Of a stretch of DNA of 64,000 nt, positions 6,001 through 56,045 are shown piece after piece (position 1 is the first letter of the stretch; every line of letters begins with the position of its first letter). The notes under the pieces are model-generated. The model was not told the DNA's origin and made no database searches. It saw nothing but the letters and a program-made list of their open reading frames with translations. Where the stretch lies: contig OZ237749.1 of assembly GCA_965178125.1 (NCBI GenBank), positions 62,001-126,000 of the forward strand, in the 5' to 3' direction. Source of the stretch: Bilabrum cf. latius. Its lineage: Eukaryota. Position numbers and translations under genes: made by a program.

Positions 6001-9000
6001 CTTGCCCCTGCCGCTGGATACTAATCAAATCAGTAGCCGCTGGCCCAAGCGCGACGGGCTCAGTTGAGTGGACAGCTAGCACAGGGAGGCTGCCTGCTAG
6101 GGACGGCGAGCCGCCGGACCGAAGGACAACAGCAAAACTGACCACTCCGGGCTGTGCTTGGCCTGATAAACGCCGAACATTCACTGAAGCAGGGTCGATG
6201 GACGATATTGTCTCCAGGGCAGACTACACTTGGGTAGCTGATGGGACCCACGGTACGAGCGATGACGCGGCAGGTCCTTCGACAGTTTCGACCTGCAGCC
6301 TGAATCCACCTGACTCGATCTCGCTGCTGATTGCCGGTGCTGCTGCAAGCTGCACTGTGCTTGAGGCTCCGGTAGCGTTGATTACCGCGGCTTGCAGAAC
6401 GTCTGCACTGTCGCACCTGAGCTGGACCAGCGTGTATCCGGCACACTCAGCCGGGTGCTCTGAGGTGCTCGCGACTATGCTGCAGCCAAATCTCTCTGCT
6501 AAAGTAGCATTATCGCCAGGAGCCGTTGCTCCACCGATTAGCTACGCAATCTCCTCGCCAGTCTAACTGCTGTCGATCCGCGAGGTGTTGAAGAGCAAGC
6601 CCTGGACCGTCAGCCCAAGCTGGAATGCGAACGTCAAATTGCAAACGGTAGCACTAGCTGAGCCATGATGTTGCACCAAGATCTGAATCTCGGGACTCGG
6701 TGCCAAAATGGTCAAAAGCTGCGTGTCGCTGAACTCTGCAACCTGATCTCCTGACGGGATCTCAACGGACACGTCCCGCAGCCATCGCTGTACCTAGGCT
6801 GCCATCCCGGTGACGGATAGAGTCTTCCTACAACCGCGGAGACCCGCACTTCGAGTCACGCAATTCCCAGTCGTCGTCACTTCGGCTGTCACACTGGCCG
6901 TATGCTCAATACTGACAGCCGGCAGCCTCACTGCTGTCCCTGGGGCGCCGATCACAATCGCATCCGGGCGAGATGTGCTGGCGATAGGGACTCTAGGCAA
7001 GTGCACCGCAGGATACTAGACCGATAGCGCTTCTAGACGAGGGCACTCGTCATCGCTGTAGGTACCTGATCCGCACAGTCGCCTGCGCCACTTTGTCAAA
7101 ACGGTGCCATCCACCTTGACGCCATCTTGGATTGACACGAGAGGCGAGATGCCTTGCGAGGAAGCGTTTACCACTGATACAGAGGAGCTGGACGACAGGC
7201 TGCATTCTTTGCCTAAGCAGCTCTTGGAATGCACCACAACGGCATTGACCATGCTCTGTGAAGCTGGCATTAGTAATAATGCACTTGCAGTCGCAGCCTG
7301 CAGCCCAGCTCTTGCCCCTATCACAGTGATACTTTGGCTGGCCGGTACAACGCCAACGCTGGTTGATTTGGATGCGACATTGGACACTTGTGCCGTGGAA
7401 TTCATCCACCCGGCTAGAGCAGCACCACGTACCTGCCAGACTACTGCCACAGAGCCACTCTCTGAATCCCACAGCTCGCGTCGTCGCACGAGCAACACGC
7501 CATTCTAGCCCGTAACAGGCCGAGATACAGCAACAGCCTGCAACGAAAGCTTCTCCTACCGTACCAAGGAGCTGCCTGGCGCCAGTGCTCTGGCTACTTC
7601 GTGCGCCGATGCATCCCCACCCCATCGCGCCACCTCGCCTGTGCCAGCCATCCTAAGCTCGATTATGCCAGAGGCAGGGTGCTGAGCCACTTGCAGGGCC
7701 TCTGCATGCATGCTGACCTCTGCTTCCCTTGCAATGGGCACAAAAAGCTCGGTTCCTCCGAGGGAATTCAGTGCGATACTCGTCACAGAGCAGTTGTAGC
7801 CTCCCGGACATGCAAGTCCAGAGCAGGTAGACCGAGCCGCATTTTGATCGTAAAGCAACCCATCCACGCCATCCGGAACATCGAAACAAGGCACGTCGGA
7901 CCCTCGTGCGTCTGATATCATCGCATTGTCCATGTCAGGGCCTAGGAATGTGACTCTCCACTCCACCCCGACGGCGACATCCAACCCGTCCCCGCTAGAG
8001 CCTAGCTCGTGCCGTTGCACAGTATCGAAATCAAGCTCTCCAGTGAGTGTCCTTGAGACCTATATGGGGCCATTCCCAAGGCTGGACGTGCTGCAGCAGC
8101 TGGAATGCTACTAGGATGGCATCGAAGTAGCCAGCGACCACTCGACGTGGGCCGGCTCCCTCAGCGAGTTGAGCGCCTGTGCAACGACGGTTGCGCTTGC
8201 GTCCAGCGGCAGCGAGGCTGTGGTGATGCTCTCAAAGCCGTTTGGGAGAGTAAAATCACCGGCTGGTACAGTCTCAAAGACCGATGCAAAGTACTCTGTG
8301 CTCCCAATCGGAGGCACGGTCACCTAGAAAGCAAGGGCTTCCTGGGGAGAGTCACCACTCCGTGCTGAATAGAACCCGCTGGAACCATCTCGCTCCGTAG
8401 TGGCGTTGAAGCTGCACCCAGCCCCATAGCTACTTGAAAGGGTTGGGGTGGGCATATTCCCTAATTCGTGGCTGAAAACGATCCTCCATGCAGCTCGCGT
8501 GGTGTTCCAGCCCACTGCGCTCACGAAAGGTCCAATGGAGGGCGACTGCCGCAGCACCGACTTGAGCTGCTGGGCCGAGGCACCCACAGTGACTCCATCC
8601 ACATTTCCAATCCCCTCGAACGCAAGGGACACTGTCCCACAAGGGGCCGACAGGTCCCAGAACTGCACCTCGGACGTAAGTCGGGCCGTCGCCACGAGTC
8701 GCTGGACTGCAGGCACATGGGGAGAGCTGCCCGCTGTGGACCGGATGACTCTAGCCACCGAGTTATACTCCGAAGACCTTATCTGCAGCAGCGGCTTGGG
8801 CGTCTCAAAGGCGACCGTCAAACCGAACGAGCGACCCTATCCAATGAGCTTTGTTTGTGAGCGCACCAAGCTCTTGCCGGCTTGGCGAACAATTGCACTG
8901 CACTCCTCGTCAAAGCAGCCAGGGGCAAATTCGACTATGAGGTTTGACACGACGGCTTGGCCTACCGGCCAGCGCAGTACCGTAGCTACCACCGCATCAA

Positions 9001-12000
9001 TCGGCGCATCCAAGTCTTGTTGCAGCTCAGGAACGGCAGATGCTGGGACATCTCCGCCAGTTGCTGACAGTCTAGTTGGCAGCGTCTCGTTTGAGCGGAA
9101 AGGGGCCAGGTTCACGCGGGTCCCATCCACGTCGAATGAGAGGAAGAACGAACCGGGGGTGAACGACCCATTCGCGTGTGCAGGCTGCACCACCACGTGC
9201 CACAGTGCCGATACATCGTCCACATGCGCGCAAAGGGTTGCATGAGAGAACTGAGCTGCGCTCGACACAATGTGAGTCGGTTCGATCGAAACCCCGGATT
9301 CCAGCTGCATGGAGGCCTGCAACGCTCTCACAACGCCAATACCCGCGTTGACACTGGGCTTGAACGACAGCAGGCGGTCGTACAACCCTATCGAGACGAA
9401 GGACTCGCTATCGATCGCAGCCGGGAACTGGGTGGCTGATGAGTTGTCGACTCGCCGCGCTTGCAGCACTTGTCTGCCTGCGGCACGCTATGATGGAGAT
9501 GCCTGTGCATGGCCTGTAGTGCATTGCAGCACCTGCACATCGGCAGCAATATCCTTGGGGGTGTCTGCCAGTACCACAGTGAATGCATCCTCCGGTTTGG
9601 CGCTGCTAGTCTGGGCGTACGACACAGAGAATGATGAAGCAGCATCCTTTGAAGCAGTGCTTGCCTAGGGAAGCACGAGGACTTCTGCGCTATCGACTGT
9701 TGCGCTCCACGAGGCCAATCCGTTTGAATCCATGTCAACTTCGCAGGCACCCAGCGGGACGATGCCAGATCCATCTGTGACCGGCAGTGCTGGCGGGCAT
9801 GCAACAGGCAAGCCATTGGCTGAGGGCCTGCGTGGGTGCAGACTAGCTGCGCGTGCATGCACCGCAAGGTACGTACTGATGTCCAAAGAAAGACCGCTGT
9901 CTGCTGCTAAGGTTTCGTTGACCGGTGCGCCCGCCAGCACTGCCTCCCACGCGCTGTATGCCGCCGAGGACGAACTAGCGGAGAATACGAACAGCTCTAT
10001 CCGTGAGGATGTGGCACATGACTGCAGCTCTATGACAATCTCGGCAGCAGCGCGGGCAATAGCCGCCGCATTTCCGAGAACAGCGACCACGCCACCACCT
10101 GGTGCAACTCTGGATCGCACACCGGCCGAGACTCCTCCAAGCACCGCTGCGAGGCCTGGGTGTAGCATGCCTAGCACTGCCCACCGTGGACTTCTTGTAG
10201 TCTAGGCCTAGAGGTGCAGCGCCCTGAGCTGGATCGCACCATTCGAGCACGACAAACTAGCGGGCAAGCTAGCACTCAGCGCCGTTTCTGGCTCGGTAAC
10301 ATCCGCCGTAACGTGCAGTATATCTGATGGCACGCCCAACACAAGGCCAGCTTGGAGAACCACTGTACCTTGAGGTGCCCCAGCAGGCGCACCCACGCTG
10401 ATAGAAAGCTGCTGCAGGACAAAACCTAGCTGCAGCGTAGTGCCCTGGGCCATGAGCTGGCTGGAAGACACGAACTTGATCGTACTTGAATTGGCTGCTG
10501 TTCCAGCGTCAATGGCGTAGCCAGTCGGCGCTGCAACACGGAGCATGAACTGCGCTGTAGATACGTCAGGCAACGGTGGCATGGCAGGGATCCGCATGCT
10601 GAAGCCATTTAATTGTACATGCGCTTTAAGCACATCGTTAGAGGACGGACCACTCCTCGACGATACCACATCGACGAAATCTAGAGAGATCGTGCTGCCA
10701 TGGGGAATAGATGCGTTGATGCACGAGCATGAAGCCCCACTCCTTGGCCTACACGGCGAATTGCTGCAGTCTGACCATACTCCCGGTGCTTGCGATGCGA
10801 TCCTACTGACGAATTGAACAGGTGCCGGAGTTGCTGGCACCACGCTCACATTCGCTTGGCCCGCCTCTTTCCAAGGACCGGAACCGTGCCTCACCGCAAG
10901 TACGGCGTGCAATGATATGTTTCCAAACGAATGGGCAAACAAAGACGTCGACGCATTCTACAGAACTCCCGCGGCATCTGATATCGACCTGCAATCGAGC
11001 ACAAGGGGCAACCCATCGTGCGACTGCACCGTGGATCCTATCGACACTGCCACGCCAGTCACACCTGTGTTCCGTGGGGCGTATGTCTGAACGATGCCTT
11101 GGCTCAGCCAAAGCGCGATTGCAAAGTGCATCCCGTCATCACGACTATTGTCTCCCGCGGCAACCAGGTTGCCGTCCACGGTCATGGCCAGTCCGGCCGT
11201 AGTGAAATCGCTCGAGCCTACAACAATGGAGTCTTGTCCCGCCACAACCCCGTAAATACGTTGGCGCGCCTGCAGCGTGGCCGTTGCACTCGCAGTGCCA
11301 TGAGTGGGCGCAACGTGCGACAGCAGCCGAGTGCTGCTCCACAACGCTACAGCATCCTTCCTTTCGTTCTCGCTCAGTAGCGAGTCCAGCCCTGGAAAGT
11401 TGTCGTGCATGGTCACAGAGAGCAGCACGGCACTGTTGGCAAATGCGCTTCGGTGCGTGAGCTCTAGCCAATTCACCTGCAGAAAAGCCCGCATCGCTGC
11501 GAGGGACCCTTCTAGGGTCACCAGGCTGCAGGATGACTGCTGCACTGCAACGCCCTGAAAGCTGGTCGGCAGCGATCCCAGGCATACTGAGTCTCGCGGT
11601 TCCGACTCAAGAGAAGCAGTGAATTGGACGAGCGAGAGGGGGCGCAGCACAGAGAGCTCCTGGCCCGCAGGCACACTCCAAGCAGCAGCATCTGGCTTTG
11701 AGTCCTCGTCGTCAAGGAGAACGCGGATAGACGCACCAGCGCCGCTGACGACTGTCCACTGGAGCAGCGACACATTCGCCAAGGTTCCGGCCCCTTCAAG
11801 GCTGACGGAGGGCGCCCTGTTCCCTGGGAGGGCCACCAGTGGGAGCTGCAGGATGGTTGAGTTCGGTACTGTGTCGCCATCGCCTGGTGCGATAACTGCG
11901 CCAACATGCACATGCAACTCGCCCCTGTAGGCTGGCGAGTAGGACGCGCATGCCAAGAGCGAGTCGAGGAAATCTGCAACCCCAGCCTGCCCTTGGCAGG

Positions 12001-15000
12001 TTGCAGATATGGTCGAATCGTTTACAAAGGTTGCTACGAACATGGACAGATCCGAGGTCTCCGCACGCAGGGCCACCACTCCCGATGATAACACGGCGGA
12101 CACGTTGACCACAAACTGCCCCTGTGGGGCCCCTGTCCCGCCGGCTTGCAGCACATTGAGTAGGCCAGTCGACCCAATGCGACCAAAGGTCGACGTGCAC
12201 TGCCCCTGCAAAATCACAATTGATGACGCACCGCTGCCAGTTTCCACTGCAGGCACACGAACCTCGGTTTCTGCTTCGACTACGATCGAGGCATTCGAAG
12301 CGCCCGTTACCCCCCCCTGTTTCTGTTCGAGGTCGGTCACGGATGCGTCTACCGTAACATGAGAAGACTAGCATCCATCTGGCAGCATGTGAACATCCCG
12401 CAAGAAAACGTTCAAGACGGCGGCAGATCCTTGCACTCTCACGTGGCCGCTATCGCCACGTTCCTGGAGATCGACTCCGCTCTGCAGCTCGGCCTCCTAG
12501 ACCCTGGGGAGCTGCAGTCGGCCGCATGATGCCGACAGTGACACACTCACAGCGCGGGCGCTGCCAGGCGATACGCTTGCCGACACGGTAGGAAAGCCAT
12601 CTGCGTATGCACCGTGCCGCAGTGAGACCGAAGGCGGCCTGTAAGAAGTCTGCACTACCACGGTAATGGACGCCGACGAAGCGGTGTCGTCGCCGGCTGT
12701 ATCCCCTTCGTGAAGGACATTGGCGACCACAGTAGCGTTGGTGGGATTCCCGTTGGGGGCGGATGATGCCGTGAACCGAAGCACCTGGAGCCCCCTGTTG
12801 AGGTCGTCCACCAGACCAGATACCCGCACCGAGGTGTACCCACCCTCTGCATCGCACAACCTGCTGCCCTCGTCGTCTGCCGTGCATGCCGGTACCGCAT
12901 CGCTGAGAAGGAGCCCCTACAGCATGGGAATCTGGATGGAACCTCCATTCACGCGCAGCTGCACCCGTCTTAACGGCAGCTCCCACGAAGGGGTCACTCG
13001 GACGTACTGGTCCCTTGCTCCGGGCAGCTTCACATGCAGCTGGTCTGGCTCGTGCATGACAAAGCCCAGGATGGGCCTAGAGGCAACCAGGGGGGCGGAC
13101 TAGGTCGTGCGGCCGTTCTGCACAGTCACAGTGGCCTCGTCCAGCACCGGAGCAATGTCCACTACGAATTCCACGGAGTCTTCCTACCCCTTGCTGATCA
13201 GCGTGACGAGCACGCTGTCGGGCTTCTATCCCGCCGTGTAGTAGTCTCTCGGAGGGGCATACTGCATGGCTGACAGGATGCTGGTTAGAGAGCCTTGCTC
13301 CACTCGCAGGGTAGCTTCCGCAAAGGAACGAGTCGTGTCACCCTCCAGTGAGCTGCCACATGGGACAGCGGTCCACTTCTCGCGACTATCCTGGCTTGCA
13401 ACGACCTCGGTTGCGCCATCGCACTCAATCGAAGCCCCAGGAGTCACAGCGGGCAAGCGGATGGATCCAAATTGAGCAGTGACCCGCAGGCGAACCACGC
13501 GGGCACCCTCCACTGCAGCGCTAGCTTCGACCCATTGGTCGAAGGAAACCACAGTGTCTTCGTTGATACGCACGCGCCCAGCCTGCCACGCCTTCCCAGA
13601 CGCTGCCAACAGGGCCGGGCGCACCCCAGCAGCTAAGCGGAGCCGCGGGCTAGGACTGCTCGTCACGCGAAGAGGGGCCGATGCGCGAGCTATGGCAGTT
13701 GCTACGTTTTCACAGCTATCCTGTGATTCGGCCAGTATCGGGCATACCTCAACGACGATCGCAAAGTCGCCCGAGCTGGCCACACCCTGAGACAGCGCTG
13801 ACTCGACAACCGCCACCCCCATGCTTCTCAGGACGTCTTGCACCCGCGCCGTAGGCAGCGCCATGGACACGGCCTACCCCTCGAGCGCCACCTGGCCAGG
13901 CACCAGAGAGGCAGTGACGTTGCCTCGGACCACCGAAGCTGTCGGAGACCCGCCATATGACGTGGGTAGCTGCAGCCGGGCAACCACCGAGTGTTCCGCA
14001 GCGCCATCCGATGCGCTGGCCCCAGCTGCAAGCAAGTGCACAGCCAGGATAGACCTGGACATGCCCGCATCGGAGGCCGGCTTAAACGTGAAACCGCTGA
14101 CGGCTACATGCCTTGCGGCCGAGACGGTCAGGGTCTCGCCCCCCTCCCAAGCCAGGGCTCCTGCCTCCATGCTTTGCTCGCGCATGGGCAACACGACGTC
14201 GAACACGCTCGACGCTCCAATGTCTCGCACCTGCGCACCGGGCAGCGCCAGCCCAACCTAGATCCGCAGTACGCCCACCTGCACCGAGGCATTCGACGGG
14301 GCCACCGTCAGGTGCTGGCCAAGCACAGCGGCCACATCGCTCGGGCTGCCCGTGATGTCTAGCGCGGTGGACTGTGCGCCTGACCGAAGGGTGTGGGCAA
14401 GGAGCGTTGACAGGTCGTCTGCTCCGCCTGCACCGAGCACCAGCGACCGCGACAGCCCGCTGCTCTCAAAGTCAAATCGGCTGCTCAGCTGGTGTGCAGG
14501 GTGCGTGGACATGCGCCCCAGAGGACCAACCGCACGCAGGTTGAAGGTGTTGCCCAGGGTGACCGACACGCCCTCTCCAAGCAGCCGCACACGCAGCAAC
14601 ACAGCCCCGGCCGTTCCCAGCAGCTGGGTCACCGCTGGATGGAGGGGCTCCCAGCGCTGGTTACGCAGGCCGAACTCCTGCCGAATGTTCGACAGGGCGG
14701 TAGCCAAGCGCTCCTGCTCTGGCAACGAGGCCAGCTGCACGGTGAGGGCGTCACCGGTGGCTGCCTTGCCCCGCACCCAGGCCACGGTGTACGGCTCGGG
14801 GCCGCACTGCCCATCTCGCGGGGCGGCGCTGCACCCCTCTGGCACGATCTCAGAGGACAGCTGCGACGAAGCATTCGACACTTCGATGATGGGCGGTGCC
14901 AGCGCCGGCTCGATCACGACGGTGATGGAAGCATGCGGAGCCGACCAGGCCTCGTCCAATTCCAGCCCCTACCCGGTCAGAGAGAGGTCCACCGTCCTCA

Positions 15001-17766
15001 CCGAGCCGCGAATCTGGTCCACGCCAAAGACGCTTTCGGCGGGCTTGTACGACACCAAGCCCAGGTAGTGTGCTAGTTCAGCAACAGGGCCCGCTGCCTG
15101 CATGCACGCACTCGGCGAAGAATCGTCCTGCAGGGCCGCCCCGCCCTCGTCGCACTAGCGAAGGAATAGACCAGCGGCGGCACCCTCCGGCGCCTCGAAT
15201 CTCGCCCCGGCTCCGCCCTCGAGCCTGACTTCAAGCACGCGGCCGGCTGGCAGTGCCCCTGCGATGCTTGCGCCAATGTGAATTTCCTCCCCCTGGGCCA
15301 TGTGGACCAGGGGCGGGTCCTGCCCGGCGGCACCTTGGTTCTGACTCCCCAGCGTCACGCGAGCCCGCCTGCCCCTCGCATCCACGGCTTCCAGCTCCAC
15401 CTGCAGGCCGCCTCCCTCGGTATCCTCCTCGCCGTCAACCGGGGCATCACCGCTGGCAGTCGTCTCCAGCAGCAGGCTCGACACTAGCAGGGCCCTGCCT
15501 TCGGGCCCCTGTCCAGAGGCACCCTGGTCAGACACGGCCACGGCCACTCGCACGGCCCCCGCTCCCTCCCTGACGCCCACCTCGGGCCGCACCACGATCG
15601 CGCCCAACGCCTCGTTGAGCAGATCGATGGGACCTTGCAGCGAGAGGGTGGCACCAGGCACGAAGGAGCGCGCAGACCCGCCCGAGCAGTCGTCCCGCAG
15701 CGCCCCGCGGGCGGTGCTCGTCGCGCTGGGCAGCACGCAACCGAAGGAGAGGGGTGGCGCGTCCCGGACCCAGTAGCTGCGGTTGGCCCCCGCAGCCAAG
15801 GCAATGCTGCCCCCAAATGCCCGAATGGTCGCGTGAAGCACCCCTTGTTCCCTGGCGGGGGAGAGTACTGGGGACAGTGCGGCGTCCTCCTGAGCGTCTT
15901 CGTCCCGGAGCCGTAGGCCGGACAGCTGGGTGCTGACGTCATCCCACGCGGTGTGCACCCTCCAGACCTGCCTGCTGAGGGCTGCTCTCCAGTCCAGCGA
16001 GCCCATCAGCAGAGTGGAAGCTAGCCCCCCTGCTCTTGCCGATACGCTCGGCAGCTGTACCTCAGGAGGGGAATTGGTCTTATAGACGGGGACGCGGACC
16101 GCGACCTGAGACTGGGAATCGGAGCTCCCTGTTACGCCTCCCGTGGATGAATTAGCACCGCCACCTGCGACAGATACAGCGGCCACCAGCAGACAGCTCT
16201 CTGCCCCGCCGGATGGAACGAGCCTCAGCCTGCCGATGGCCTCCTACAGCGCACTGGCACTGCCCTCCAGCATCTTAGGCGAGCCGCCTGCCTCTACCTC
16301 CAGCACGCGAGCGCCGACCGGGGAACCACCGCTGGGTCCATCGGTCTGCACAACCGCCACCCCAGGCAGTCGATCTGTAGATGCACCGCAGCCGAACGCC
16401 CGCAGTTGCACCCGCAGCAGCCGGGGTTCGACCCCCGGCACAGCATCCGGGTCCTCCACCGTCACAGGCGATCCGCCCACCAGGTGCTCCAGCATTGCCC
16501 CGGTGTGCTCTGCGATCCCATCGCCGGGCACCGACACACAGGCAGCGCCTGGCGCGAGCCAGTCCGGGCTGCCTGCGCTCTCGGGAGCACCCCCGGCGGC
16601 GACGCACGCGCTCCTCGGCTGCTCTAGAAGCTTTGACGCTGCCACCACCCTGGGTGAGTCCTCCACCGCCCTCACCATCACCTGCATCCTGCCAGTGCGC
16701 GCGACCACCGAACCCTGGGTGCCTGTCAGCGCGTCCAGCCAGCCCCCCACATCGCTGGGCGCGCCCTTCCCCGCGAGGTGCACCAGCGCCCCCTCTTCCT
16801 GCGGCAGCCCCAAATACATCCTGACCTGGATTTCCTCATCGATGCCCCACCCAGAGTGCCAGTTGGCAGGGGGCTGGTAGGAGAGGCTGGAGAGGAGAAC
16901 AGACACGGAGTCGGCAGTGCCCACCAGAGCCACGGCCGCGGGTTGCTGCTGCGCGACGGCCATACCCGCGTGCGAGACCTCTGGCATGCGGAGCGGAACC
17001 ACGACAGCCCCGCCCTATTGGGGCAACCGCACAGCCTCCGCTGGTGCCGCCACGATCGTGCCGTACTGGGCCCGGACGAGCACTGCGGTCTTAGTTGCGG
17101 TGTGCTGCAGGCCACCCGCATCGATGAATGGCGCCAGTGCTGCGGGCGAGTCCTCATCCACGTGCAGCTCCTTCGCCAAGCTGAATGTCAGCTGCGGCGC
17201 GGGGGCCGGCCCCGCATCCATCCGCACTTGCACCCTGCCGAGCAGCGCCGAGCGCTGGTCCGGGCCTGCAGTGTAGAGCGGGTCAAACCCGTTGCCCAGG
17301 CGCCAATACTGCGCAGTCACCGTAAACTCAGTTTCTAGTGATGTGGAGGATCGCAGCCACCGCACGCTCCTGGCAGCTGCTGCCACTGAGGACGCATCTC
17401 CAACCAGCCTTAGAGACGTCTGCGGTTTGCTGCGGTCAACATAAAATAGCAAGCTGCGAGTGTCGTGAACGGTAAGTAGCCCACCGCTGGAGGCATCTAT
17501 CTACATTTCAAAGACTTGCGTTCTAGAGCTACCAGATACCTCCACCTAAACTGCGATACTGGTGCAGACAGAAAAGAGTTGCAACGTTATGTGTGTATCT
17601 TCGGGAAGCGAAGGGGTTAACACCTGGTAAACTCACGCCCAACATTCGTAGCATGAGGGCCATTAGCTGAGACTGTGTTTGGAGCAGTCATGCGGATGCT
17701 CGTTTGCTCCAATTCACACAGCACACCGCAAGCGCACAGTACCAGCACGCTTATCGCGACATGCAT
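1..17766 (-). CDS. Giant secreted surface/adhesin-like protein (>5,800 aa, 3' end beyond window edge) with cadherin-like/Ig-fold repeats; requires TAG as a sense codon; exon 1 17637-17766, exon 2 <1-17550
   Basis: 27 minus-strand ORF-track pieces (ending at 212, 761, 1055, 2507 ... 16244, 17015) are all in one frame and all end in TAG. Reading the gaps by hand gave about 55 TAG and no TAA/TGA. Exon 1 encodes a signal peptide (MHVAISVLVLCACGVLC). Recurrent motifs such as GTLTEVNLALAQTTYASLPTFTGTDYLTVS, GPIDLLNEALGAIVVRP, GTADSVSVLLSSLSYQPPANWHSG and N-x-P/A-P linkers (VNEPPEI, NRAPSV, NSPPEV, NNAPQL) resemble cadherin-like tandem repeats. Confidence 0.85.
17551..17636 (-). other. Spliceosomal intron (86 nt, phase 1) in the giant secreted protein gene
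   Basis: GTGAGT donor and TATCGCAG acceptor on the minus strand. Removal joins the 130-nt signal-peptide exon in frame to exon 2 and removes an in-frame TGA. Confidence 0.75.
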
Positions 17767-17959
17767 CGTGCCAGCCCGACAACTGCGCAAGTCTCGCAGT
17801 CCTTGGTTACAAATATATGCCGAATTTGCGTTAACGGTCCAATATTTTCAAAATTACGCGTCAAAATGGACCGGATATAAAGAAAGCGTTAAATCTGGAA
17901 AACCGGAAGTAGAGTTTGAGTGGCCGGATCGCGAGCAATGGTCCAGCCCCTATCCATCA

Positions 17960-18955
17960 TTACTTCAATTTCAACTCAGATGGCTTTTGAGCGCCTGAGC
18001 TAGACCTGCTTGCCCCCCTAAAAGCTCGGAGCGCGGATACCATCCAGCTGATGTTCAGGAGTGTCATGCCAGCGGCCCCAGCGTAGCAGTACCACCGTGT
18101 GGGCCCCGGGTCTCCCCCTCCTGCCCCGGCCCCTGACCCCGCCTCGGCGATGCCCCCCTTACTCCCTTCACTCGCGGCATGAATACCGCTGGACTGCGCC
18201 GGCCCGTCCAGCTCGCCGCTGTTCTCCGCCTCGCCCCGGCAGCCTTCCCCCACTTGCACTTGCCCCTGCAGCGCGCCTCTGCTCCTCTCATACCACGCGA
18301 TAACGGCCGGCCAGAACAGCACTCGAAGAAAGAGAAACCCGAGACCAAGGGACGCCTGCAGCAACAGCCGCACCCGCCCCAGCCACGCGCGACTTGTCGG
18401 CGACGTGGCGCCTGACTCATCTCCGCCGACGGAACTGGCAATCCGCCGCAGCAGCCAGGATAGGTTCAACAGTGGTGTAGTAGCATGTTGCACGAACAGG
18501 AGCCCCGCAACTACTGACCCTGCAGACAAGCGAGCCTGCACGGCAAGCAGCAAGACTCCGCCTAGAATGCATGCGGCGTGGTGCACGAGGTCTCGCCATC
18601 GCATCTTCTACTCTCGTATAATTTTAATGATATCAATTAACGTATCGAGCCCGTAGTAGGCAAGCTCAAATAGTACCTGCTGCTCGTTCTACGTCCGAGA
18701 TTCAGCCTCAATCGACATCCGTGGCGGATCGCATTCGATTTCAATCGACCAACGATGAGCTATTTTCGCAGCTTTCACAGCAAAGATTGTTCCTACTACT
18801 GCATGCACTGTAGAAAGCAATCTCTGTGCGGCATCACTCGGGGGGATGCCTGCGGCGGGGACTCTTTGCAGAAATAAAAGTGTGCATGCATATACCAGTC
18901 CCAGCCCTGAGGCCCTTCCGAGAATACCGGAAGCAATATCGAGTATATTTCTCAT
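17960..18955 (-). CDS. TLC (TRAM/LAG1/CLN8) domain membrane protein; 2 in-frame TAG (18608, 18689); alternative start ATG at 19009
   Basis: ORF pieces 18689-19075 and 17960-18604 share a frame. Joined, they give TLC hallmarks: STVHA, AYYGLDT, LVHH, TTPLLNLSW, FLFLRVL, LLNISWM. Ends TAA-TGA. Confidence 0.8.
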
Positions 18956-19618
18956 GTATGCATGATTCGATGTTGTGTCTGGGTCCTCAAATCCTAGGAT
19001 TAACGTCATTCGGATCCCGGGACTGGTTACACACAGTGCACTGCAGTTGCACTTTCCTGTGGCTCTGCTGCACACTCTATGCTAGAACCTGATGGCACGG
19101 GTGCTGGTGTTCAATCATGGATGGACCATGCCGGGCTACTGTGCGCGGGGGCCTAAAGTCTCTCGGAGGCCCAGGCCCCGCCATGTCTTGCCATGATGAG
19201 CCCCATGGGACATGGCCTCATTCAGTAGTCTGCAGGGGGCAAGGCCAGGGGGGGCTAGGATGGCGCCCCCATCAGATCGATCTGATCCTGCCGGACATAC
19301 CCGAGCACATCCCTTGTACCGACCCTCCCTGGTTCCTTCTAGCCTAAGGCTAAACCCATGCATGCCGTATCCGTTCTGGCTCGTTCACTACATGCACGGT
19401 GATCGGTAAGCTAGCTGGCTTCTTGAAAGACTGCGAGGAGGATCAGACCAGGGCCAACAAGCTGCATCTCATCGAATCGTCGAGGTTGCTAGTACAGTGG
19501 CTCCATGCCAACCCCGGTAAACCGTGGCTTCGTATCCAATAGTGAAGATGAATGTGCGAAAATGCTTGTGAGCGAAAGCACAAACTAGACTTCGTGCGAA
19601 CCGACAATAACCCCCAAA

Positions 19619-21011
19619 ATGGTTGAAGTGAGCGCATTGATTGAAGTATATGTTGCTTGCAACAATTGTCTACTAACACTTCTCTAGGCATTGGCTGAAT
19701 AGTTGGACTACTGAAGCACCTCATCTTCAAAAAATCGTCTCGCAGGAAGTACGAGCGCAAGGCAAGGCCCTACTCAAATCGAAGGATTATTCTGGCGCAG
19801 AAGAAGAGTATACAAGGGGGATTGGGATCGATGAATCCCAGGCGTGGCTGTGGAGTAACCGAGCCATCGTCCGCCTGCTAAGGAAAAAGTATGCAGACGC
19901 GGCAGAAGACGCCAAGAAGGCAATCGAACTTGATGAGAGCCTTGCCAAAGCATATAATACCAGAATCAAGGCTACGATGGCCATTGGAAAACTTGATGAA
20001 GCCTTGGAGGCTGCCCTCGAGGGTAAGGAGAACTTGACTGGCAGCGACAAGCAAAACATGGAACAGTACGAGACAACAATCCACAGGCGAGTCATGGCTA
20101 GAATCAATGGCGGTGGTGCGCATGGGGGCGGGGGTGTCCAGGTGCGCGTCCCCTGGTCCGAGAAGCCCGCTTGGGGCGGCACGCTGGACGCTCCGAGCAC
20201 GCTGCAGCTGGCCTCTGGCATCGTCGGGATGGTGTTCGCGGTGCTCCACGTGGTTCCGCTTGTTCCCTTGGGGGGATACGAGAGGTACGTCGGCACGCTA
20301 GCCGTGGGCCTGGCCATCTCTGCGAACGCCCGCGGGATCATGTCGGTGGCGGGCCCCGTGCAGTTCACCAGCGCATACCTGCAGCAGGCGCTCATCCAGC
20401 GGTTCTCCCCTGGGCTGCTCACGGCGCTCACATGCCTCACCGGCACACCTAACGCCGCCTCGCTCGGCGCCATGTGGTTGTTCCCCGGGGTGCAGGCGCT
20501 CACCCAGCTCGCCGTCGTGGCACCCGCCCTTGCCGCCCCGCTGGCCTCGCTGGGCCGGTGGCTGGCCACGAGCGCGCTGGGCATGAAACCGGAAGAGTGG
20601 GACGCCAAGAGCCCGCGGCAGAGGCTGGCTGCGCTGGAGGACCCCGCGCACAAGCTCGCGGCCCAGCTGTGCTTGCTGTCCCTGGCCCTGGGCCTCGTGG
20701 AGATGGTCACAGGGGCGGGGGGCATCTCCACCCTGCTCGTGCTCGGCATGCTCGTGTACCTGCAGAGCGCCATGAACCCGCACATGCGGACGGTGCTGCG
20801 TGAGATAGACGCCTGGGGGCAGGAGAGTCTCCCTGCGGGCATGCAAGGGACGTGGTCCTCGGTGACCTCGCTCGTTGGCTCCTTTGATCCAGTCGAGCAG
20901 GCCAGGAAGCAGCACGAGCAGCAGCAGAGGCAGCAGGCGGGAGGGAGTGACGCGGCGGGGGCAGCTGGTGGGGGCATCATGGGGCAGCTTGGACACTGCA
21001 CTGTGTCATGA
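19619..21011 (+). CDS. N-terminal three-TPR domain fused to a multi-pass TMEM33/Pom33-like membrane region, ending in CaaX-like CTVS; putative 9-nt first exon (19619-19627) and intron 19628-19745
   Basis: The frame upstream of the track ORF (19977) stays open back to a CGCAG acceptor and reads EVRAQGKALLKSKDYSGAEEEYTRGIGIDESQAWLWSNRAIVRLLRKKYADAAEDAKKAIELDESLAKAYNTR, a co-chaperone-type TPR. Hydrophobic C-terminal half; TGA stop. The start exon is tentative. Confidence 0.7.
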
Positions 21012-21262
21012 TGCGACTCAAAGGGGTGCTAGAGGTAGAAGAATACCGGCTTGCCTGGCTGGGCAGCCAGAGTCAGACAGCTCAATGGAACTCAAAGGGA
21101 ATACAAAGCGATTCAGCTGTGGTCGTACACTCAACAAGACAGAAACATGCGCCCCAGGCCTCACCCCAGCTCACGTGGCAAGCGTCCATTGGAAGCTGCC
21201 TCACCAACGACGCCATTCCATTCACACAATCCGGTGCCTCCTTGTCCCACGGCCTGCCGCCC

Positions 21263-24200
21263 TCACCCCTCGAACACCACGGCCCTTGCAGTGAGCAGGA
21301 ACCTGAAGGCGAACACCTCCACGGGCAGCGCGTCGAACTTCTTGAGCTTGCTGTCCTTGGCCTGCGTCTCAGAGGTGGCCTCTGGCCTGGCCGCCAGCTT
21401 GCCCACGATCTCCACGCCGCGAGAGGGGTCGAAGAACCGGGCCGTGTGCGTGGTCAGCACGACGTCGGCGAACCGCACGCGGGTCTCCACGTCCGGAGAC
21501 AGCTGCCTGGCCCCTCCTTCGCTGCCCTTCTTCTTCTTGCCTAGCGCCAGCTCCTTCTTGGTCATCTCCTTCTCGTACTGCTCGTTGATCTCCTTCCGAT
21601 GGTTGCGCTGCTCCTCCGTCTCGACCCTCGAGGGCAGCTCCAGGCCCATGGACGAGATGATCTGCGTCAGCGCGCAGTTCACGCGCTCCTCGTCCTTCTC
21701 GTCGTCCACGGCGGTCAGCGGCAGCCACACCCGGCAGTGGGGCCCGCCCTGCGACGACTGGCAGTCGCACGGCTCCGTCTCGGCGTTCGAGCCCCCGGCC
21801 AGCAGCCTGCCAGACGTGGGGTCCAGCACCACGAGGCCAGGGGTTATCACTCGCACGATGCGGTAGCCCCGCCTGGCCAGCTGGAAGATCATGCGGGTCA
21901 CGACGCACTCGTCCCCGACCCTGCCCTCGGGCCACTCGCCCTCGCCGGTCTCCACGGCGGCGGGCATGGGAGTGGCGCTCTTGGACTGCAGCAGGGCGCG
22001 GTACAGGGCGCCTGCCAGGTCGCCCTTGGTGCCTGCGAGCACAGTATGGCGGCGGTAGAGAGGAATGAGCCGGCCCAGGACCATCTTCATGTCCTGGATG
22101 GTCTTCACACCCGTCCTCGAGGCATCCGCGCCCTCGCCAGTGATGCCCCCGAACGCGGTATCCGGGTCGTAGTACGAGTTCCACTCCATATCCCCATCTT
22201 CGTCGTCAAACAGGTGGTCGTCGGTCACCATGTACATGTCGTCCTGGTAATTCTCGTACGCCATGAAACCCGAGCCATAATCTTCCTCATACCCGCTCTC
22301 ATCGCCGCCATAGTAGTCATCCAGCTTCGCGTCCTCGTCCTTGCCCTCACCCGAGCCGGCCTGGTCCTGCTCGTCATGGGAGTACGGGTCCTCAAACGAC
22401 TCCTCGTAGGCGGCGATATTGTCGTCCTCGAAACCTCCATCGCCCGTGAGCATGACAGGATCATCGTAGTAACTGCTGTACTCGGAGTAACGGTCGTCCT
22501 CATCTGCTGAGGCGTCCCCACCATCACCGTCCTCCCCCTCAAGGCGACGCGCCCCAGAAGCAGCGCCGGCACGAAGCACCGACACCCGCGCCGGAGACAC
22601 CGCCTCCACCGCCTCCGAGGCGTGCACGGCCCCGACGTCAACCAGGCCCGCAAGGCCCCGCGCGCGGCGGCTCTTGTCGAATCCCGCGGGGGGCTACTTC
22701 CACCAGGCCTCGCTGCCCACGCCGCTGTCGGCCGGCAGCTTGGACTCGAGGACGCCTCCGTCGTCCAAGCGGTCCAGCGCCCCGTGGGAGAGCATGGCAT
22801 CTAGCTCCTGCCCGTCATCGTCGTCGCTGGCCACCTGGTTGGCCTGCGCGATGGGCGCGTACACCTGTCGGCCCCCCACCACGCGCCAGGTGGCCTTGCG
22901 GGCGAGCGTCACTGGCAGGTTGGAGAGGCTCGAGTCGAGCAGCACCACGTTCACGTTCTGCCCGCGGGCCGCCATGAGGCCGGTGTAGTAGGCCTGCACG
23001 GCCTGCGAGCTGGCCAGCACGTTCAGCATGGACTCGTCCGAGAGGCGCCGGCTCTTGTTCCCCGCGGCTGCCTTTGCGTCCGCCGCGGCCTTCTCCTCCT
23101 TGGCCTTCTTGATGAGAGCCTGCAGCGTGCCCTGCCCGTGCTTGGTCATCCACTTATCCAGCCTGGCCTGCACCTTCTTGTCGACCTGGCCCGCCTCGAT
23201 CTTCTTGACGAGCTTGCCGATGTGGTGCTGCAGCACCTCCTGCTCCATGTGGCTCACCCGCTTGTCCGTGCGGTCCCCCGAGGTCACGTCCTTGCCCTGG
23301 TTCTTGACGTCCTTGTTCACCCCGGCGTCGTCGTCGTCGTCCGCGTTCTTGTCGTCCGTGCTCTGGCCCGTGCCCCGGCGGCCCTTGGACCATGTGGCCA
23401 GGTCCTTCATCATGTCCTCGGGAGAGGCGGCCACCACCGGCTGGATCTTCACGTCGATTCCCAGGGCAGTACGCGCCGAGTCCACGATGGAGGTCAGCCG
23501 GACGGGGGCGTCGTCTAGCTCCACGTGCCTCGTCTCTACGGGCACGATCATCAGCTCGGCCGACACCCCGGGGCTGTCCTTGGGGTTCTTGGCGCCCACC
23601 ATGCGGGCGAAGGACTTGATGAGGTTGGGCAGGCGGTGCAGGTGCCGCGCGCGGTAGGGCAGCACGGCCACCACGTGCTGCTTGACGAAGCGGGCCCAGT
23701 TCTTCGGCTTCTTCTATACGATCGGCTTGTCCTTTGCGCCCTCTGCATCGGCCAATGACCGCCTCCTGGTGCCCTGCGCGGCCGCTTGCTCGGTGGCCTC
23801 CTTGCCTGCCTCGATCTCTGCCTCTTCCTCCTTCTTGTCCTCCTCGGGCACCGCGCTCTCCTCCCTCTCCTCCTCCTCGATGGCCTCCTCCGTCTCCACG
23901 CCCTTGCTAAGCTTGGACTGCTGGAAGAGGTCTGTCATGTTGGCGCCCTCGCTCAGGGGCTTGACGATGGGCCGCGGCAGCCATCGCCGGCGGTAGCACA
24001 CCTCGCGGTAGTCCCCCGGGCCCAGAGGGACCCGCATGCGGTACATGACCCCGAACACGGGGTGGGGCATGAAGAAGACCCTCCTGCAGCAGCTGTCCTC
24101 GTTCTGGGGCGAGAAGGCCTGTTTCCAGACGGACCGGCCGCGCATCCACTCGAGCGTGCCGTTGAGGCTCTGCACGGCCTGCGCCGCCACGCGCATGGCC

Positions 24201-25031
24201 TGGTTCCGGTTGTCGCTGTAGTACACGCTCCCTGCCACCGGCTTGTCGTCCGCAGATGCCACCCCAATGCAGGGCTGCTCCCCAAAGCTGACGGCGTTCC
24301 TGGCCGAGGAGAGGACGCCCGGGTTGGTGGGGACCCCCTCCCATGCGAGCTGGTCGGGGGGCAGCTGGCAGAACCACGACAGCAGGTTGGTGGCACCGCT
24401 CTCGATGATGCCCTCTTCATGTTCCCTGAGGCTCTTGGACACGATCAGGTCCAGCTGGGACCGCATCTCGTCGCGGATCTCGCCGGCCTTTTCCTTGGCT
24501 CCGGAGCGCAGGGCTTCAATCTCGCGAGTCAGCTTGGCGATTTCAAGAGACGTTCCCTGCGAGCTCCCCGAGCCAGATTCACGGGCCTCTTCCAGCTCTT
24601 GGATGCGTTTGTTCAGCTCGCCGATCTCTTCCGCGGGGGCGCTGTAAACGTCCTCAATCTGCTGCTGGTATTCCGCCTAGTACTTACGGCGGAACTCATC
24701 CTCGAGACGAATGCGCTCGTCTGCAAAATGCAATTATATAGCTGGACAAATACACCAAACATGGAGAGATCCGCATGCACTTATGGTAGCCTCTCGAAAC
24801 CAAAAGAACGCCACAAGAAGTAGATTTCCTAGAAACACTCGCAGAGCATGTACCAAAACACGCTCCACGCCAAATAGCCTGTCAAACAATCTTACCTACA
24901 GATAGGCTGTGTGATACCGTGGGTGCATTGCGAGCGTCTTTTCGAGAGCCCGAGAAGACGAAGAACCACAGAAGACCAGTCACAACAGCTGTTGCTAGGA
25001 CTACCACGCCAATTTTGCGGGGCTCTGACAT
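21263..25031 (-). CDS. Type II membrane protein (~1,197 aa) resembling a divergent chondroitin synthase/CHGN-family glycosyltransferase with acidic inserts; exon 1 24896-25031, intron 24721-24895; 3 in-frame TAG
   Basis: Exon 1 gives MSEPRKIGVVVLATAVVTGLLWFFVFS (signal anchor). A GTAAG...TTTTGCAG phase-1 intron joins it to a coiled-coil stem. Pieces ending 23714, 22694 (TAG) and 21263 (TGA) are in one frame. Motifs VAVLPYRAR, VVLLDSS...GRQVYAPI and GYRIVRVITPGLV recall CHGN motifs. Confidence 0.6.
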
Positions 25032-27435: not shown

Positions 27436-30400
27436 ATGAGCACCCGCATATCTGGTACATCTCCGGGAGGTTCGTCGCAAACCGTGGCCGACTTGCTTGA
27501 AGCTGTACTGGGCATTGCGGACGACGGGAACGAAGCTGGGCCGTCGCTGGGATCCACCAGAGGCAGTACTCCCGGGGATGCCCCTCAGCTTGTGGATGCT
27601 GCATCTCGTGCTATTTAGATTCATGCGATGGCGGACGCTGGTACTGTTTCGCTTCGGTCATATCGGGCAGTACGAGCCGGGCTGCTTCGCAGAGTTGGGG
27701 TAATTCGAAGCATAGAGCCTCGGGACCCGCTCACAGAGATATCAGGTCGGCTTCTGATAGCAACTGGGAATATTGTTAGTTTTTTGCAGTCACGCGCTTG
27801 CACCCCATTGCCGTTTTCCTCCTCAGCGCTGTGGTCAACTCCAATTCAGTCGTAAATATTCTGTCGCAGGCGCAAGCTGTGGCAAGATCGGCGGCCAAGC
27901 CGGATGTCCAAGAATGCATACGTCAATTCAAGGAAGCTTCGTTGAAAGCGGTCGCGGGGTAGACAGCCGTGCCGTCGCGAGCGAGTGCCGCGCTGTGCCA
28001 CGGCCTTGCGACAGCCACCGCCGTATGCTTGGCTCCACTCGTGGAAGCAGAGGCCGCAGAAGAAGAAGCCCTCAAGTCAGATACGGGAGGATGGAACATG
28101 GCGAGCCCGCTGCGGAGCAGCCCGCAGGCCATTTCGCAAGGCCTCGCTGCGCTCCGCCGCACGGCAGCCGGTGGAGCCGCTGGTCCTGGCTCCGGCGCAC
28201 CTGGTGCGGTGAGCTCGGGGCAGCCTAGCGCCCCACAAACACTAGTGGAGGCCAAAGCCGCCTCTGCTGCGGCCGTAAAGAACATGGGAGACGCCCTGGA
28301 GGCACTCAGCAGGGCCGTAGCGGCTGTGGCGCACGGCGCCGCGAGACGAGCCTCCACAGCTGCCGCAGCTGCCGCGGCGCCATCCAGCGGAGCGCCGTCC
28401 CGCCCCGTTGGACAGGCTCTCGTGACTGCCCTACGGGCCACCATCCTCAACCCTCAGTGCGCGGGCACCCTGGCAGCCGTGCTTCCCCTCATGCAGCACC
28501 GGCCTGGTGCCGTCCGCCGCGCCGCCCCGCACCTGGTGCTGTCCTCACTCCTGCTCGCCTCGGTCGTGGAGCAGGTGCCCGAGCTCAAGGCCGCCGCGGA
28601 GCACGTGGACTCGGGCGAGCGCGAGGAGGTGCTCTTCTTCGCCAGGATGCGGGCCAGCAGGGCCGGCATGGCCAGCCTCAAAGCGACCCTGCCGGAGCCC
28701 CAGCTGAGGCCAGGGGACACGGAGGCGGGCCGCTCCGAGGAGCAGAAGGAGGCAGTGGAGGCCGTGAGAGCCATCCGTTTGCTGGTAAGGGGGACATCCG
28801 CTGCCCTGGGTGCTCTGTGCGCCGGCCCCGAGATGGAGGAGGAGGAAGAGGGTTGGCTCGGGGGCTGGCTGGCCTCTCGGATCTTCGACGGGGGGCTGCT
28901 GGCGGTGCCATGCAGCGCGCGGGGACCGGAAACAGAGGCGGACGTCGAGGCGGCGATGGTGGCCATCGGAGCAAGGGCCGCAGGTGCAGCGGAAGGCGGC
29001 GCGGCGGCGGCGGCTGCTGCCACCGGAGCGGGTGCCCCTGCGCCCAGCAGGCATAATAGGAAGACCCTCCGGTTGCGTCTCGAGACCGCCATAGACGAGG
29101 CAAGGACCAGATCGTCGGCGGATGGGTCCGAGGCGCAGGCGCTGGCAGATGCTAGCAGTGGCTGGGACGGTCTCCTGACGGCAGCTGCCCGGGCCGCTGG
29201 GGTGGGGGGCACGGGCGGTGCGGCCTGTACTGCCGTTGGCCCGGCGGCGGCTTCAGGGGAAGAAGAGTAGGAGGAGGGTGCCTCTATTCCTACGGAGGCG
29301 CTCGGAGCCCTGCCTCCACTGCAAGCGGCCCTGCAGTGCGCCCGGGCCATGGGCAAGGACTGTCCTCCCGAGCTGTAGGCGGCGGCGAGGCCCACTTGCC
29401 GACCAGACAGGGGCGATTCGGCTGCATGCACCAAGTTCATCTGGACGCTCTTCAAGAAGACCAAGAAACCCAGCGGAGGTGCCGCTGCTGCTTCGCTGCC
29501 GAACGGTGGTCGAGGGCTGGGGATCGACTCGAGTACGTGGCCACCCCCCTCCAAGACAGGCAAGCAGCTGCGCAAGTGGGCTCTCAAGTCGCTGACCCGC
29601 GTGGAGCTCAGGGCCACCACGTTCACTGGGGATGACGGCAAGAAGCTGGTCGAGGTGGATGTGGCTTTTTTGGCGGCGTTCCTGAGGCACAGCGGGATGT
29701 GGAAGGAGCTGGCTGCGCAGGTCAAGGCAGCCAAAGACGCGGTCGCTGAGGGCGGCCCCGCCCCTGACCTGAGCAAGGCCCTGCCAGGTCCTGAGGCTGG
29801 CGGCCCCATCGCAGCTGCGATGAACGTGCTGTCCAGCACCAGGGCCAGGATCATGAAGAACATGGCCGCGCTGGAGAGCAGTGCCACCTCGCCGGAGGAA
29901 GGAGGCGGTGCGGTCCTCGAGGAGGAGGACGAGGAGGACGGTGAGACAGGTGCCCCTCCAACCGAAGGAGGCAGCGCCGCTGCAGCAGAGCCTGCCTCCG
30001 GGGCGGGCGGTCCTTCCTCGGGTGCCGGCGAGGACGGCCTAGCCAGGCAGCAGACGGGGCAGCAGGTCAGGATCCGCTCCCGCCGCTAGATGAGCGTCCT
30101 GCATGCCGCCACCGGCCAGGACTTGGTGGACGCAGCAAGGGGCGCGCTGATGCTGTGGGCCTTCTGCGCGGCGGGCGCGGGGCCCCTGCAGCATGAGGGC
30201 CTGGCGCGGGCGAGCCGAGCCTCTGCAGCGGCGCACGCGCAGGAACCGCCTACGAACGACAGGGTGAAGAGGGAGTTCCAGCTGCAGGCTAGCTTCGGCG
30301 TCATGTTTCAGGAGGCCGCCGATGAGGCAGCCGGCATCAAGCCGAGCGGACCCAGTGAGAGCGTCCGCGAGATCGCCAAAAATCGGGCGGAAGCTTTCGT

Positions 30401-36400: not shown

Positions 36401-38444
36401 AGGGTCACCCTACCTGTGCCCAGTGGACGTCGCCGCGTTCGAGGCAGCCGCGCCGATGGAGCACCAGGGGCCTCTGTGGGACCCGAACCAGGGCCCCGAG
36501 GGGTGCTTCCCCCCTCTCAACACAGGGAACAAGGTGCCATCCGACTTCAACCGCTGCTCGGAGATCGTCGCCGTGGCGGCTCTCCGTGAAGTGCTCAAGG
36601 GTCTCGTCGTGGCGGTGGACCTACACGCCAGGGCCGTCCGCCCCGCTCGCATCCCAGACCCGTGGGTCGTGGCTGCGATTCGGCTGGCAGACGGGGAGCC
36701 CTCGGATAGGAGCCGCCTGCCCGTGGGTCGGCTGCACGAGGCGCACGTTTTGCTCAGCGAGTGGACCCGCGAGATGGACGAGGACATGGTGGCCTTCCTG
36801 CAGGAAAGGGCCATCCGCGGCGAGGTCCCCATGCAGGACCTACGCCCGCACACCATGAACGTCACGCAGCGCGACAGGGCAGCCTACATCAACCTTGCCC
36901 TCCCGAGCATAGAGTCGGTCAGGATGCGCGCCTCTCTGCTCATCTTGGTGAACCGCGCCATCAGCCGCTGCATCCGGCTCGTCGATGCGCGCGCCCCGCT
37001 GGGAGCCACATCGGTTGGCGGGATGCTGCGCCGCATGGCCCACATCGTATTTCCCGACTCGGTGATGCCAGTGATGGAGAAAGCCCTGATTGCCACACGC
37101 AACGACGAGAGGAGCAGCCTCTCGGTCACCCTGGATCGCGTGGAGGCGGCTGAGTCCGCCCAGGGAGGGGAGGTATCGCCCTCTAGATCCCACTGCTTCT
37201 TCGCGCAGCTATACAGGCAGCTGGAGAGGCAGCCTGCCTCCCGCATGCGTTGCAAGCTGGACGACAAGGACCGTCTCTTCAAGGTGACCTACAAAGGGGA
37301 GGACGGGATCGACTGGGGAGGGCTGTTCAGGGACATGTTCTCCACCGTCATGGACGAGCTCTTCAGCGCCAACCCAGCCATTGCGCTCTTCGCGCCTACG
37401 CCAGCGCACCGCGCATTTTTGGCTGGTACTGCGCCAGCACACACGGGTACAGATGAGGTATACGTGCCCGTGGCATCCGCACGGAACGCCTAGGCATCGG
37501 GAATGATGAAGTTTGTGGGGGTGCTGATGGGAATCTCCCTGCGGTACAAGCTCTATCTCGACTTCAAGCTGGCGCCCATCGCCTGGAAGCTCATGGTCGG
37601 CGAGGAGCCCACCGCGGCTGACATCAAGGAGGTGGACCCCGTGGTGGGCACTACCCTCGTGAACATCCTGCAGTGGGATCCAGAGAGGGCGGAGCGCGAC
37701 CAGGCGGGTAGTGGCGGTGCTGCCGACGGCGGCGAGGCAGCTGCTAGCTCTGGTGCGGCCGATGAGAGTGTACAGACGGCGGCCGAGCGCGACTTTGACA
37801 ACAAATTCCCCGATTTGTTCTTCGTCGACATGCTAGACCGGCGTACGCCTCTCATGGTGGGAGGAGAGACCACGCCCGTGACGCCCTCAAACCGCCTCGA
37901 ATTCGTGCACCGCGTGGTCCAGAGATATGCTGGGCAGTTCAAGGTGGCCTGTCGTGCCATGCGGCGGGGGCTAGCCGTGGTGGTGCCCGACCGTGCTCTC
38001 TCCCTTTGCTCCTGGCGCAACTTGGAGGGGCTCGTGTGCGGGCCATCCATCATCGACGCGACGCTGCTGAAGCGTCACACGAGGTACATCCGAGGCTTCC
38101 CAGCGGACTGTAACACGGCCAAATGGCTTTGGGAGATCATCGAGGACATGAGCAACCGAGAGAGGCAGCAGCTGATCCGGTATGCGTGGGGCCGCAGCAA
38201 GCTTCCTCACGGCAAAGATGGCTGGAAGGACGCCAAAGGCAAGCCCGTGCATTTCAACCTCTCCCCTTACATGAGGGACGTGGGGGGCGGCCACCTGGTC
38301 ATGGGTGGGGACGAGTCTCTGATCGAGGCACACACGTGCTTCTTCTGGCTAAAGCTGCCGCAGTACACCAGTAAGGCCAAACTACTGAGGAATCTGCAAC
38401 GGTCAATCACAGAGGGCCTCGCCTCTGGCATGCAGATTGCGTGA
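27436..38444 (+). CDS. Large HECT-type E3 ubiquitin ligase (~3,637 aa) with UBA-like segment, RanBP2-type zinc finger, CUB-like region and C-terminal HECT; exon 1 27436-27774, intron 27775-27869; 10 in-frame TAG
   Basis: Track ORFs starting 27969, 29601, 30090, 31350, 33540, 34065 and 37503 share one frame and are separated only by TAG. HECT motifs: FKVTYKGEDGIDWGGLFRD, FVGVLMGISLR, LEGLVCG, catalytic AHTCFFWLKLPQY. Zinc finger WTCPTCSVQN...CMVCMSPRP. GTTAGT...TCGCAG phase-0 intron; TGA stop. Confidence 0.88.
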
Positions 38445-51823: not shown

Positions 51824-51896
<73 letters not shown>

Positions 51897-55712: not shown

Positions 55713-55725
55713 CCCCACGCAGACC
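55713..55725 (+). repeat. 13-bp target-site duplication CCCCACGCAGACC; further copies at 56033-56045 (identical) and 57315-57327 (two C>T changes)
   Basis: The three copies bracket both retroelement fragments exactly. Confidence 0.75.
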
Positions 55726-56032: not shown

Positions 56033-56045
56033 CCCCACGCAGACC

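Follow-up and report, generated by a model that had tools for sequence, protein, structure and literature searches.

The 64-kb stretch of DNA analyzed here as a whole (the window) probably follows a code in which UAG alone has been reassigned from stop to sense, being translated into an amino acid, with UAA and UGA left as non-sense; judging from alignments with homologues, that amino acid is very likely glutamine. Twelve coding stretches with 17,811 sense codons contained 102 in-frame TAG, no TAA, and no TGA, compared with the 216 TAG, 70 TAA, and 73 TGA expected in frame from position-specific base frequencies. One in-frame TAA, at position 61506, was counted apart from these stretches and is discussed below. 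The other five frames of the same 12 stretches held 30 to 52 TAA each. Selection has kept reading frames as free of TAA as of TGA, exactly as a stop codon would predict, and an unassigned codon would predict the same. These counts bear out the first-pass annotation of this DNA, which had described UAA as apparently uncoupled from UAG on the grounds of many in-frame TAG, no TAA in intact genes, and free use of CAA (136 occurrences in the 12 stretches).

The window has a G+C content of 63% and represents nuclear DNA from a protist that is GC rich and poor in introns. Its eukaryotic Pfam families—HECT, AMP-binding, TLC, UBA, PUB, TPR, and acyltransferase—and its GT-AG introns rule out a bacterial origin. 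The standard code splits the long genes, and reading through TAG yields frames of great length, with at least 5,874 codons spanning 2 to 17623 (minus strand), 3,548 codons at 27798 to 38444 (plus strand), and 2,029 codons at 41588 to 47677 (plus strand). When translated with NCBI table 15, all genes tested opened up, and TAG was read in frame inside genes that encode HECT, AMP-binding, and TLC domains (Pfam). The HECT ubiquitin ligase gene (27798 to 38444, plus strand; PF00632, E = 1e-49) has nine TAG and no TAA in its 3,548 codons and ends in TGA. A TLC-domain (TRAM/LAG1/CLN8) gene, with an open reading frame (ORF) at 17960 to 19114 (minus strand) and an uncertain 5′ end, has three in-frame TAG; its match to Pfam PF03798 (E = 3.1e-9) covers residues 96 to 360 of 384. 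The long-chain acyl-CoA synthetase (ACSL) gene (38663 to 41240, minus strand; AMP-binding domain, Pfam E = 6e-76) has one intron and a TGA end. It also carries, at about 39900 to 40500 (minus strand), an insertion of ~140 residues, rich in G, A, and S, that is absent from 17 of 17 aligned homologues and holds a TAG. Two further genes end in TGA, namely, a TPR gene without TAG (19677 to 21011, plus strand) and a 1,156-codon gene with three TAG that belongs to no Pfam family (21263 to 24733, minus strand). The CLU/TPR frame (58245 to 63581, minus strand), CLU-like in its middle region and TPR-like in its C-terminal half, runs for 1,778 codons with 21 TAG and one TAA before a TGA end. The giant ORF (1 to 17632, minus strand) spans at least 5,877 codons with 55 TAG, no TAA, and no TGA, and its 3′ end lies beyond the window; its glutamine codons comprise 177 CAG and 65 CAA. 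Rich in S, A, V, and G, it is still open at the window edge, and a protein library search with residues 3090 to 4210 returned two short relatives only.

Four introns, all GT-AG and all on the minus strand, were verified. The ACSL intron (40847 to 40965) was fixed by homology, and three introns of the acyltransferase gene (53161 to 53297, 53587 to 53681, and 53729 to 53824) were fixed by spliced joints in run sets X5 and X7, which may be RNA; no such joints occurred in X1, a DNA run. Spliced joints in X5 and X7 were confined to the acyltransferase gene. The four introns are 95 to 137 nt long, with 5′ ends of the form GT(A/G)(A/C)GA and with CCGCAG at the 3′ end in all four, an unusually uniform splice site, although the sample is small (n = 4 introns).

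The TAA count is not circular, because the zero persists in ORFs delimited by TGA alone: the giant ORF (5,877 codons) has 55 TAG and no TAA, and the HECT ORF so delimited (3,648 codons) has 10 TAG and no TAA. The TAA codons that remain in such ORFs are four that lie upstream of the first ATG, plus the one at 61506 to 61508. An ordinary code in which both UAA and UAG (UAR) specify glutamine, as in NCBI table 6 (many ciliates, Hexamita, ulvophytes, and Amoeboaphelidium, as listed in PMC11687900), would share the reading of TAG found here but would also make TAA a sense codon, its scarcity then being due to GC bias alone. Such a bias is evident in a GC3 of 72% across the coding stretches, and the single TAA at 61506 would also accord with a UAR code. 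However, A-ending partners are common in the same 12 stretches: CAA makes up 20.6% of CAR codons (136 CAA versus 523 CAG), GAA 22.9% of GAR, and AAA 19.1% of AAR. Were TAA and TAG synonymous, 20 to 24 TAA would be expected (~21 from the CAA share, given 103 TAR codons), and none was found (P = 1e-9 to 7e-11). The related metagenome contig L001, described below, likewise has seven TAG and no TAA. Since TAG is a frequent sense codon and TAA is excluded as fully as TGA, a UAR = Gln code is highly improbable, and on this point too the earlier annotation, which had taken the pattern to argue against such a code, was right.

The TAG-sense code appears from sequence comparison to be common to a clade of three or more related organisms, of which one is represented by a metagenome contig. 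When 1,191 residues of the CLU/TPR protein were used to search the full protein library, short predicted proteins with 57 to 86% identity were returned, and part of the giant ORF as a query returned two further fragments with 84% and 91% identity. Starts or ends of these near-relative fragments coincide with TAG codons of the window, namely, codons 232, 1104, and 1361 of the CLU/TPR gene and codons 3610 and 4124 of the giant ORF. We attribute this to a standard-code gene caller having been run on a TAG-sense genome; standard-code callers have thus already fragmented the proteins of these organisms in public collections (P0123 to P0127, P0132, P0176, and P0177). A query with P0124 found no match to the near relative's DNA in metagenome contigs. 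The third organism, a more distant relative (54 to 60% protein identity), is represented by contig L001 (3,982 nt). Positions 1 to 3982 of L001 are syntenic with 19677 to 24733 of the window, and the convergent pair formed by the TPR gene and the 1,156-codon gene is kept in order and orientation. Across 1,162 in-frame codons, L001 has seven TAG, no TAA, and no TGA; both of its genes have a TGA stop, placed no more than a codon from the corresponding C termini in the window. No further loci of the clade were found in viral or prokaryote genome collections.

Eleven TAG sites in the window face a sense residue in a homologue, and that residue is glutamine at five of them. Opposite the ACSL TAG at 38732 to 38734 (residue 792), 16 of 17 homologues have Q and the other has E, and 22 further codons lead from this TAG to a TGA at the homologues' C-terminal end. 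The TAG at 22694 to 22696, within the otherwise invariant motif WWK-PAGFDKSRR, faces Q in both relatives (P0178 and P0179). Codons 4054 and 3687 of the giant ORF face Q in the near-relative fragments P0176 and P0177 (84% and 91% identity), as does CLU/TPR codon 1067 in the near relative. At the other six sites, close relatives have E, E, S, S, W, and A; the window residues opposite the seven TAG of L001 are Q, Q, R, R, L, A, and D, the first six of these TAG belonging to the homologue of the TPR gene at 19677 to 21011. Given such mixed residues, glutamine is a plurality and not a proof.

It is accordingly conceivable, if improbable, that UAG is sense but specifies another residue (Glu, Ser, Leu, or others) or is ambiguous. 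The six non-Gln sites would be in keeping with another residue, and nuclear codes with UAG = Leu and UAG = Ser do exist (PMC11687900). At every well-conserved column tested, however, the residue facing TAG was Gln (a small sample: 16 of 17 in ACSL, 2 of 2 in WWK-Q-PAGFDKSRR, and 2 of 2 in the giant-ORF fragments). Five of the six non-Gln sites lie in the fast-evolving CLU/TPR gene, in gapless stretches with 57 to 76% identity to the spanning fragment, and the residues at all five are one base from TAG; the sixth, the A in gene 21263 to 24733, is not. With the residues opposite the TAG of L001 included, A, L, and D are the exceptions to this one-base distance. Compared with the rhizarian exLh (UAG = Leu) and Scotinosphaera (UAG = Ser), in which UAG is decoupled from UAA as it is here (described in PMC5304391 and PMC11687900), TAG in the window never faces L, and it faces S only at two poorly conserved sites. 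Ambiguity of the Condylostoma or Blastocrithidia type, in which one codon serves both as sense and as a gene-end stop, is opposed, as far as TAG goes, by its use at 0 of 11 gene ends; for TAA, the counts are one terminal and one internal occurrence. Glutamine remains the reading that we prefer.

At the 11 gene ends, TGA was used 10 times, TAA once (in the TLC gene), and TAG never, in line with the first-pass statement that nearly all genes end in TGA, a prevalence that we ascribe to the GC-rich genome. The TAA of the TLC gene (17960 to 17962, minus strand) is its first stop, 24 codons past the end of the domain, and is followed directly by a TGA (17957 to 17959), so that the plus strand reads tcatta across 17957 to 17962. 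This tandem at the sole TAA-ended gene was present as originally noted, and it is equally the case, as that annotation cautioned, that with one TAA end and a TGA right behind it the window alone cannot prove UAA to be a stop. No support emerged for the further proposal of UAA as a weak or transitional stop with UGA as its backup. Trinucleotide TGA is 4.6 times as frequent as TAA in the whole window and 2.5 times as frequent outside genes, and one TAA or fewer among 11 ends would occur with P = 0.39 or P = 0.13 under these respective ratios. A set of 11 ends would show one or more stops at position +1 by chance in 14% of cases. The UGA-backup reading rests on one case, which is within chance; moreover, the TGA-ended CLU/TPR gene (58245) likewise has a second TGA, at +2. 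The TAA-TGA at 17957 to 17962 would then be an ordinary TAA stop with a chance TGA downstream.

The window contains two TAA of consequence for this question, one terminal and one internal. The internal one is codon 692 of the CLU/TPR frame (61506 to 61508, minus strand), with conserved protein sequence on both sides. It is spanned without differences by contigs from two independent run sets (X1 record 7 and X5 record 13), so its presence, reported at first pass, is read supported. The frame was then called a decayed TPR-like gene, and that description survives only in part: the in-frame TAA is there, but it is the sole defect, the 1,778 codons of 58245 to 63581 (minus strand) being otherwise free of frameshifts, TGA, and TAA, and the frame-0 coding score is positive across it.

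Codon 692 is a stop in the near relative too, since its predicted protein P0127 ends in ...VGVRDA and P0124 begins five codons later. The relative's eight internal stops face TAG in the window five times, AAG once, GAG once, and the 61506 TAA once. As the facing codons in the window are all TAG or one base from it, TAG is the simplest reading of what the relative has at codon 692, which would make the TAA at 61506 a G-to-A transition. A TAG-to-TAA change of an ancestral sense TAG thus seems the likeliest origin of this codon. With UAG as glutamine and UAA as stop, such a change would be a nonsense mutation, a hazard peculiar to this code. Because 1,086 codons are still open downstream, the nonsense change would be either recent or leaky.

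Two other accounts of the TAA at 61506 were tried and rejected. An intron at 61582 to 61460, the sole in-frame GT-AG candidate, would be 123 nt long (GTGAGC...GCTAGCAG), but it lacks the CCGCAG end shared by all four verified introns, and its GC fraction of 0.63 matches that of coding sequence and compares with 0.51 to 0.57 in those introns. Its frame-0 coding score is positive throughout, and it is mostly covered, with protein-level identity, by the relative's peptides P0127 and P0124. The spanning X5 contig is unspliced, although that contig may be DNA, as its ends match those of the DNA contig; X7 covers the CLU/TPR gene in pieces only, which exclude 61460 to 61582. A split into two genes at 61506 would leave 75 nt from the TAA to the next ATG, compared with at least 337 nt between other same-strand neighbors. 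In addition, four of the five long homologues of the N-terminal half have TPR repeats in the same protein. These four (P0157, P0148, P0173, and P0175) carry TPR_12 repeats downstream, and three of them also have a CLU domain (E ≤ 0.0015), P0148 having none. On these comparisons the CLU/TPR gene is ancestrally single.

The conserved flanks and the long intact frame after 61506 would also fit read-through of UAA. This would be one element of a broader reading, in our judgment rather unlikely, in which UAA is weak, leaky, transitional, or unassigned, being avoided within genes, seldom used at gene ends and then backed by UGA, and read through at 61506. Such a reading draws on the TGA directly behind the only TAA gene end; on the flanks of the 61506 TAA, conserved at the protein level, with 1,086 open codons downstream and a stop in the relative; and on homologues with both CLU/TPR halves in one protein. 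UAA is, besides, the preferred stop in the UAG-only codes described in PMC11687900 and PMC5304391 and is rare here. Yet there is a single example of each kind; neither the number of TAA ends nor the tandem stop departs from chance, as calculated above; and a functional stop would be expected to leave no TAA among the 17,811 codons. A further point against this reading is that the stop in the relative, at codon 692, is most simply TAG. A stronger version, in which UAA is being freed from its stop role—rare and UGA dependent at gene ends and translated or efficiently read through at a codon of the CLU/TPR gene where the one relative compared also has a stop—is more doubtful still. If true, it would place this organism, alive today, partway from a UAG-only code to a UAR = Gln code, with UAG reassigned first, the reverse of the usually assumed route. 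We favor UAA as a stop, with the TAA at 61506 derived from a sense TAG.

The best named relative of the ACSL protein is that of the stramenopile Cafeteria roenbergensis (55% identity), with oomycetes next. In the ACSL tree, the window sequence sits on a long branch in a polytomy with Cafeteria, oomycete, and other sequences, and on this placement the organism would be called stramenopile-like and no more. In a full-text literature search that covered few subscription journals, neither a stramenopile nor any GC-rich organism outside the ciliates was listed with such a code, and the lineage may be new. If the stramenopile affinity holds, the code would fall within a supergroup for which no nuclear code change was found in that search.

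The kind of code is already known, as UAG-only reassignments occur in Iotanema spirale and some ciliates. We take the code of the window to be of the type of NCBI translation table 15, with the same reading of TAG as Q; the table describes a code and does not denote a lineage. The first nuclear codes with UAG as sense and UAA as stop were described by Panek et al. (2017; PMC5304391) from a rhizarian (Leu) and from Iotanema spirale (Gln), for which the authors argued that a tRNA with a CUA anticodon and changes in eRF1 were involved; the Iotanema eRF1 carries T32G, at a position that reads the third base of the stop codon. Codes with UAG = Leu and UAG = Gln have since been reported from phyllopharyngean ciliates by McGowan et al. 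(2024; PMC11687900), who also cite Protocruzia (Gln) and Scotinosphaera (Ser) and stress UAA as the preferred stop. Before 2017, no nuclear code was known to separate UAG from UAA, and few are known today; those named in these two papers are from Iotanema, a rhizarian, Scotinosphaera, Protocruzia, and some phyllopharyngean ciliates.

Iotanema offers the closest parallel in kind, being likewise a non-ciliate protist with UAG alone reassigned to Gln and UAA kept as a stop, as is probably the case here (PMC5304391 for Iotanema). There, however, UAA is described as the primary stop, whereas 10 of the 11 gene ends in the window are TGA, at 63% GC. Iotanema is also a fornicate, whereas the closest named homologue of the window comes from a stramenopile, and its code was established from a transcriptome and eRF1 (PMC5304391), whereas the present case is known from in-frame codons and homologues. 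The ciliates Hartmannula sinica, Trochilia petrani, and Protocruzia tuzeti likewise have UAG = Gln only, with UAA retained, and independent origins show this variant to be recurrent (PMC11687900). Their genomes are reported at 27 to 54% GC, with UAA preferred and UGA least used (PMC11687900), an order reversed in the window.

The window thus appears to represent a further independent case of a UAG-only code. It is unusual in three respects: the genome is GC rich, so that UAG was presumably a common stop before its reassignment; the main stop is UGA and not UAA, the reverse of the published UAG-only cases with which it was compared; and the trait occurs in at least three related organisms. With regard to mechanism, a tRNA-Gln with anticodon CUA would pair with UAG and not with UAA, and eRF1 would have lost recognition of UAG while keeping that of UAA and UGA. 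This scheme carries over from the tRNA-Gln(CUA) and altered eRF1 proposed for Iotanema (PMC5304391), and we infer it from published cases because the window holds neither gene. ARAGORN and Rfam detected no tRNA genes in the window, no Rfam family of any kind was matched there, and an eRF1 gene is absent from both the window and contig L001.

Two repeated features of the window were recorded separately. A coding dinucleotide-type repeat at 51809 to 51907 would be read as GS repeats on one strand and AR repeats on the other, and public contigs break there. A multi-copy element occupies 55300 to 57340, where the summed X1 contig depth rises from ~14 to 490 to 1,390; neither this element nor the small ORFs had a Pfam match. 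The element is represented by many variant contigs, with loose ends in X1 at 56034 and 56047. Its ORF at 56011 to 57228 (plus strand) comprises 405 codons with seven TAG, and the last 77 residues are repeated at 55712 to 55945 on the same strand.
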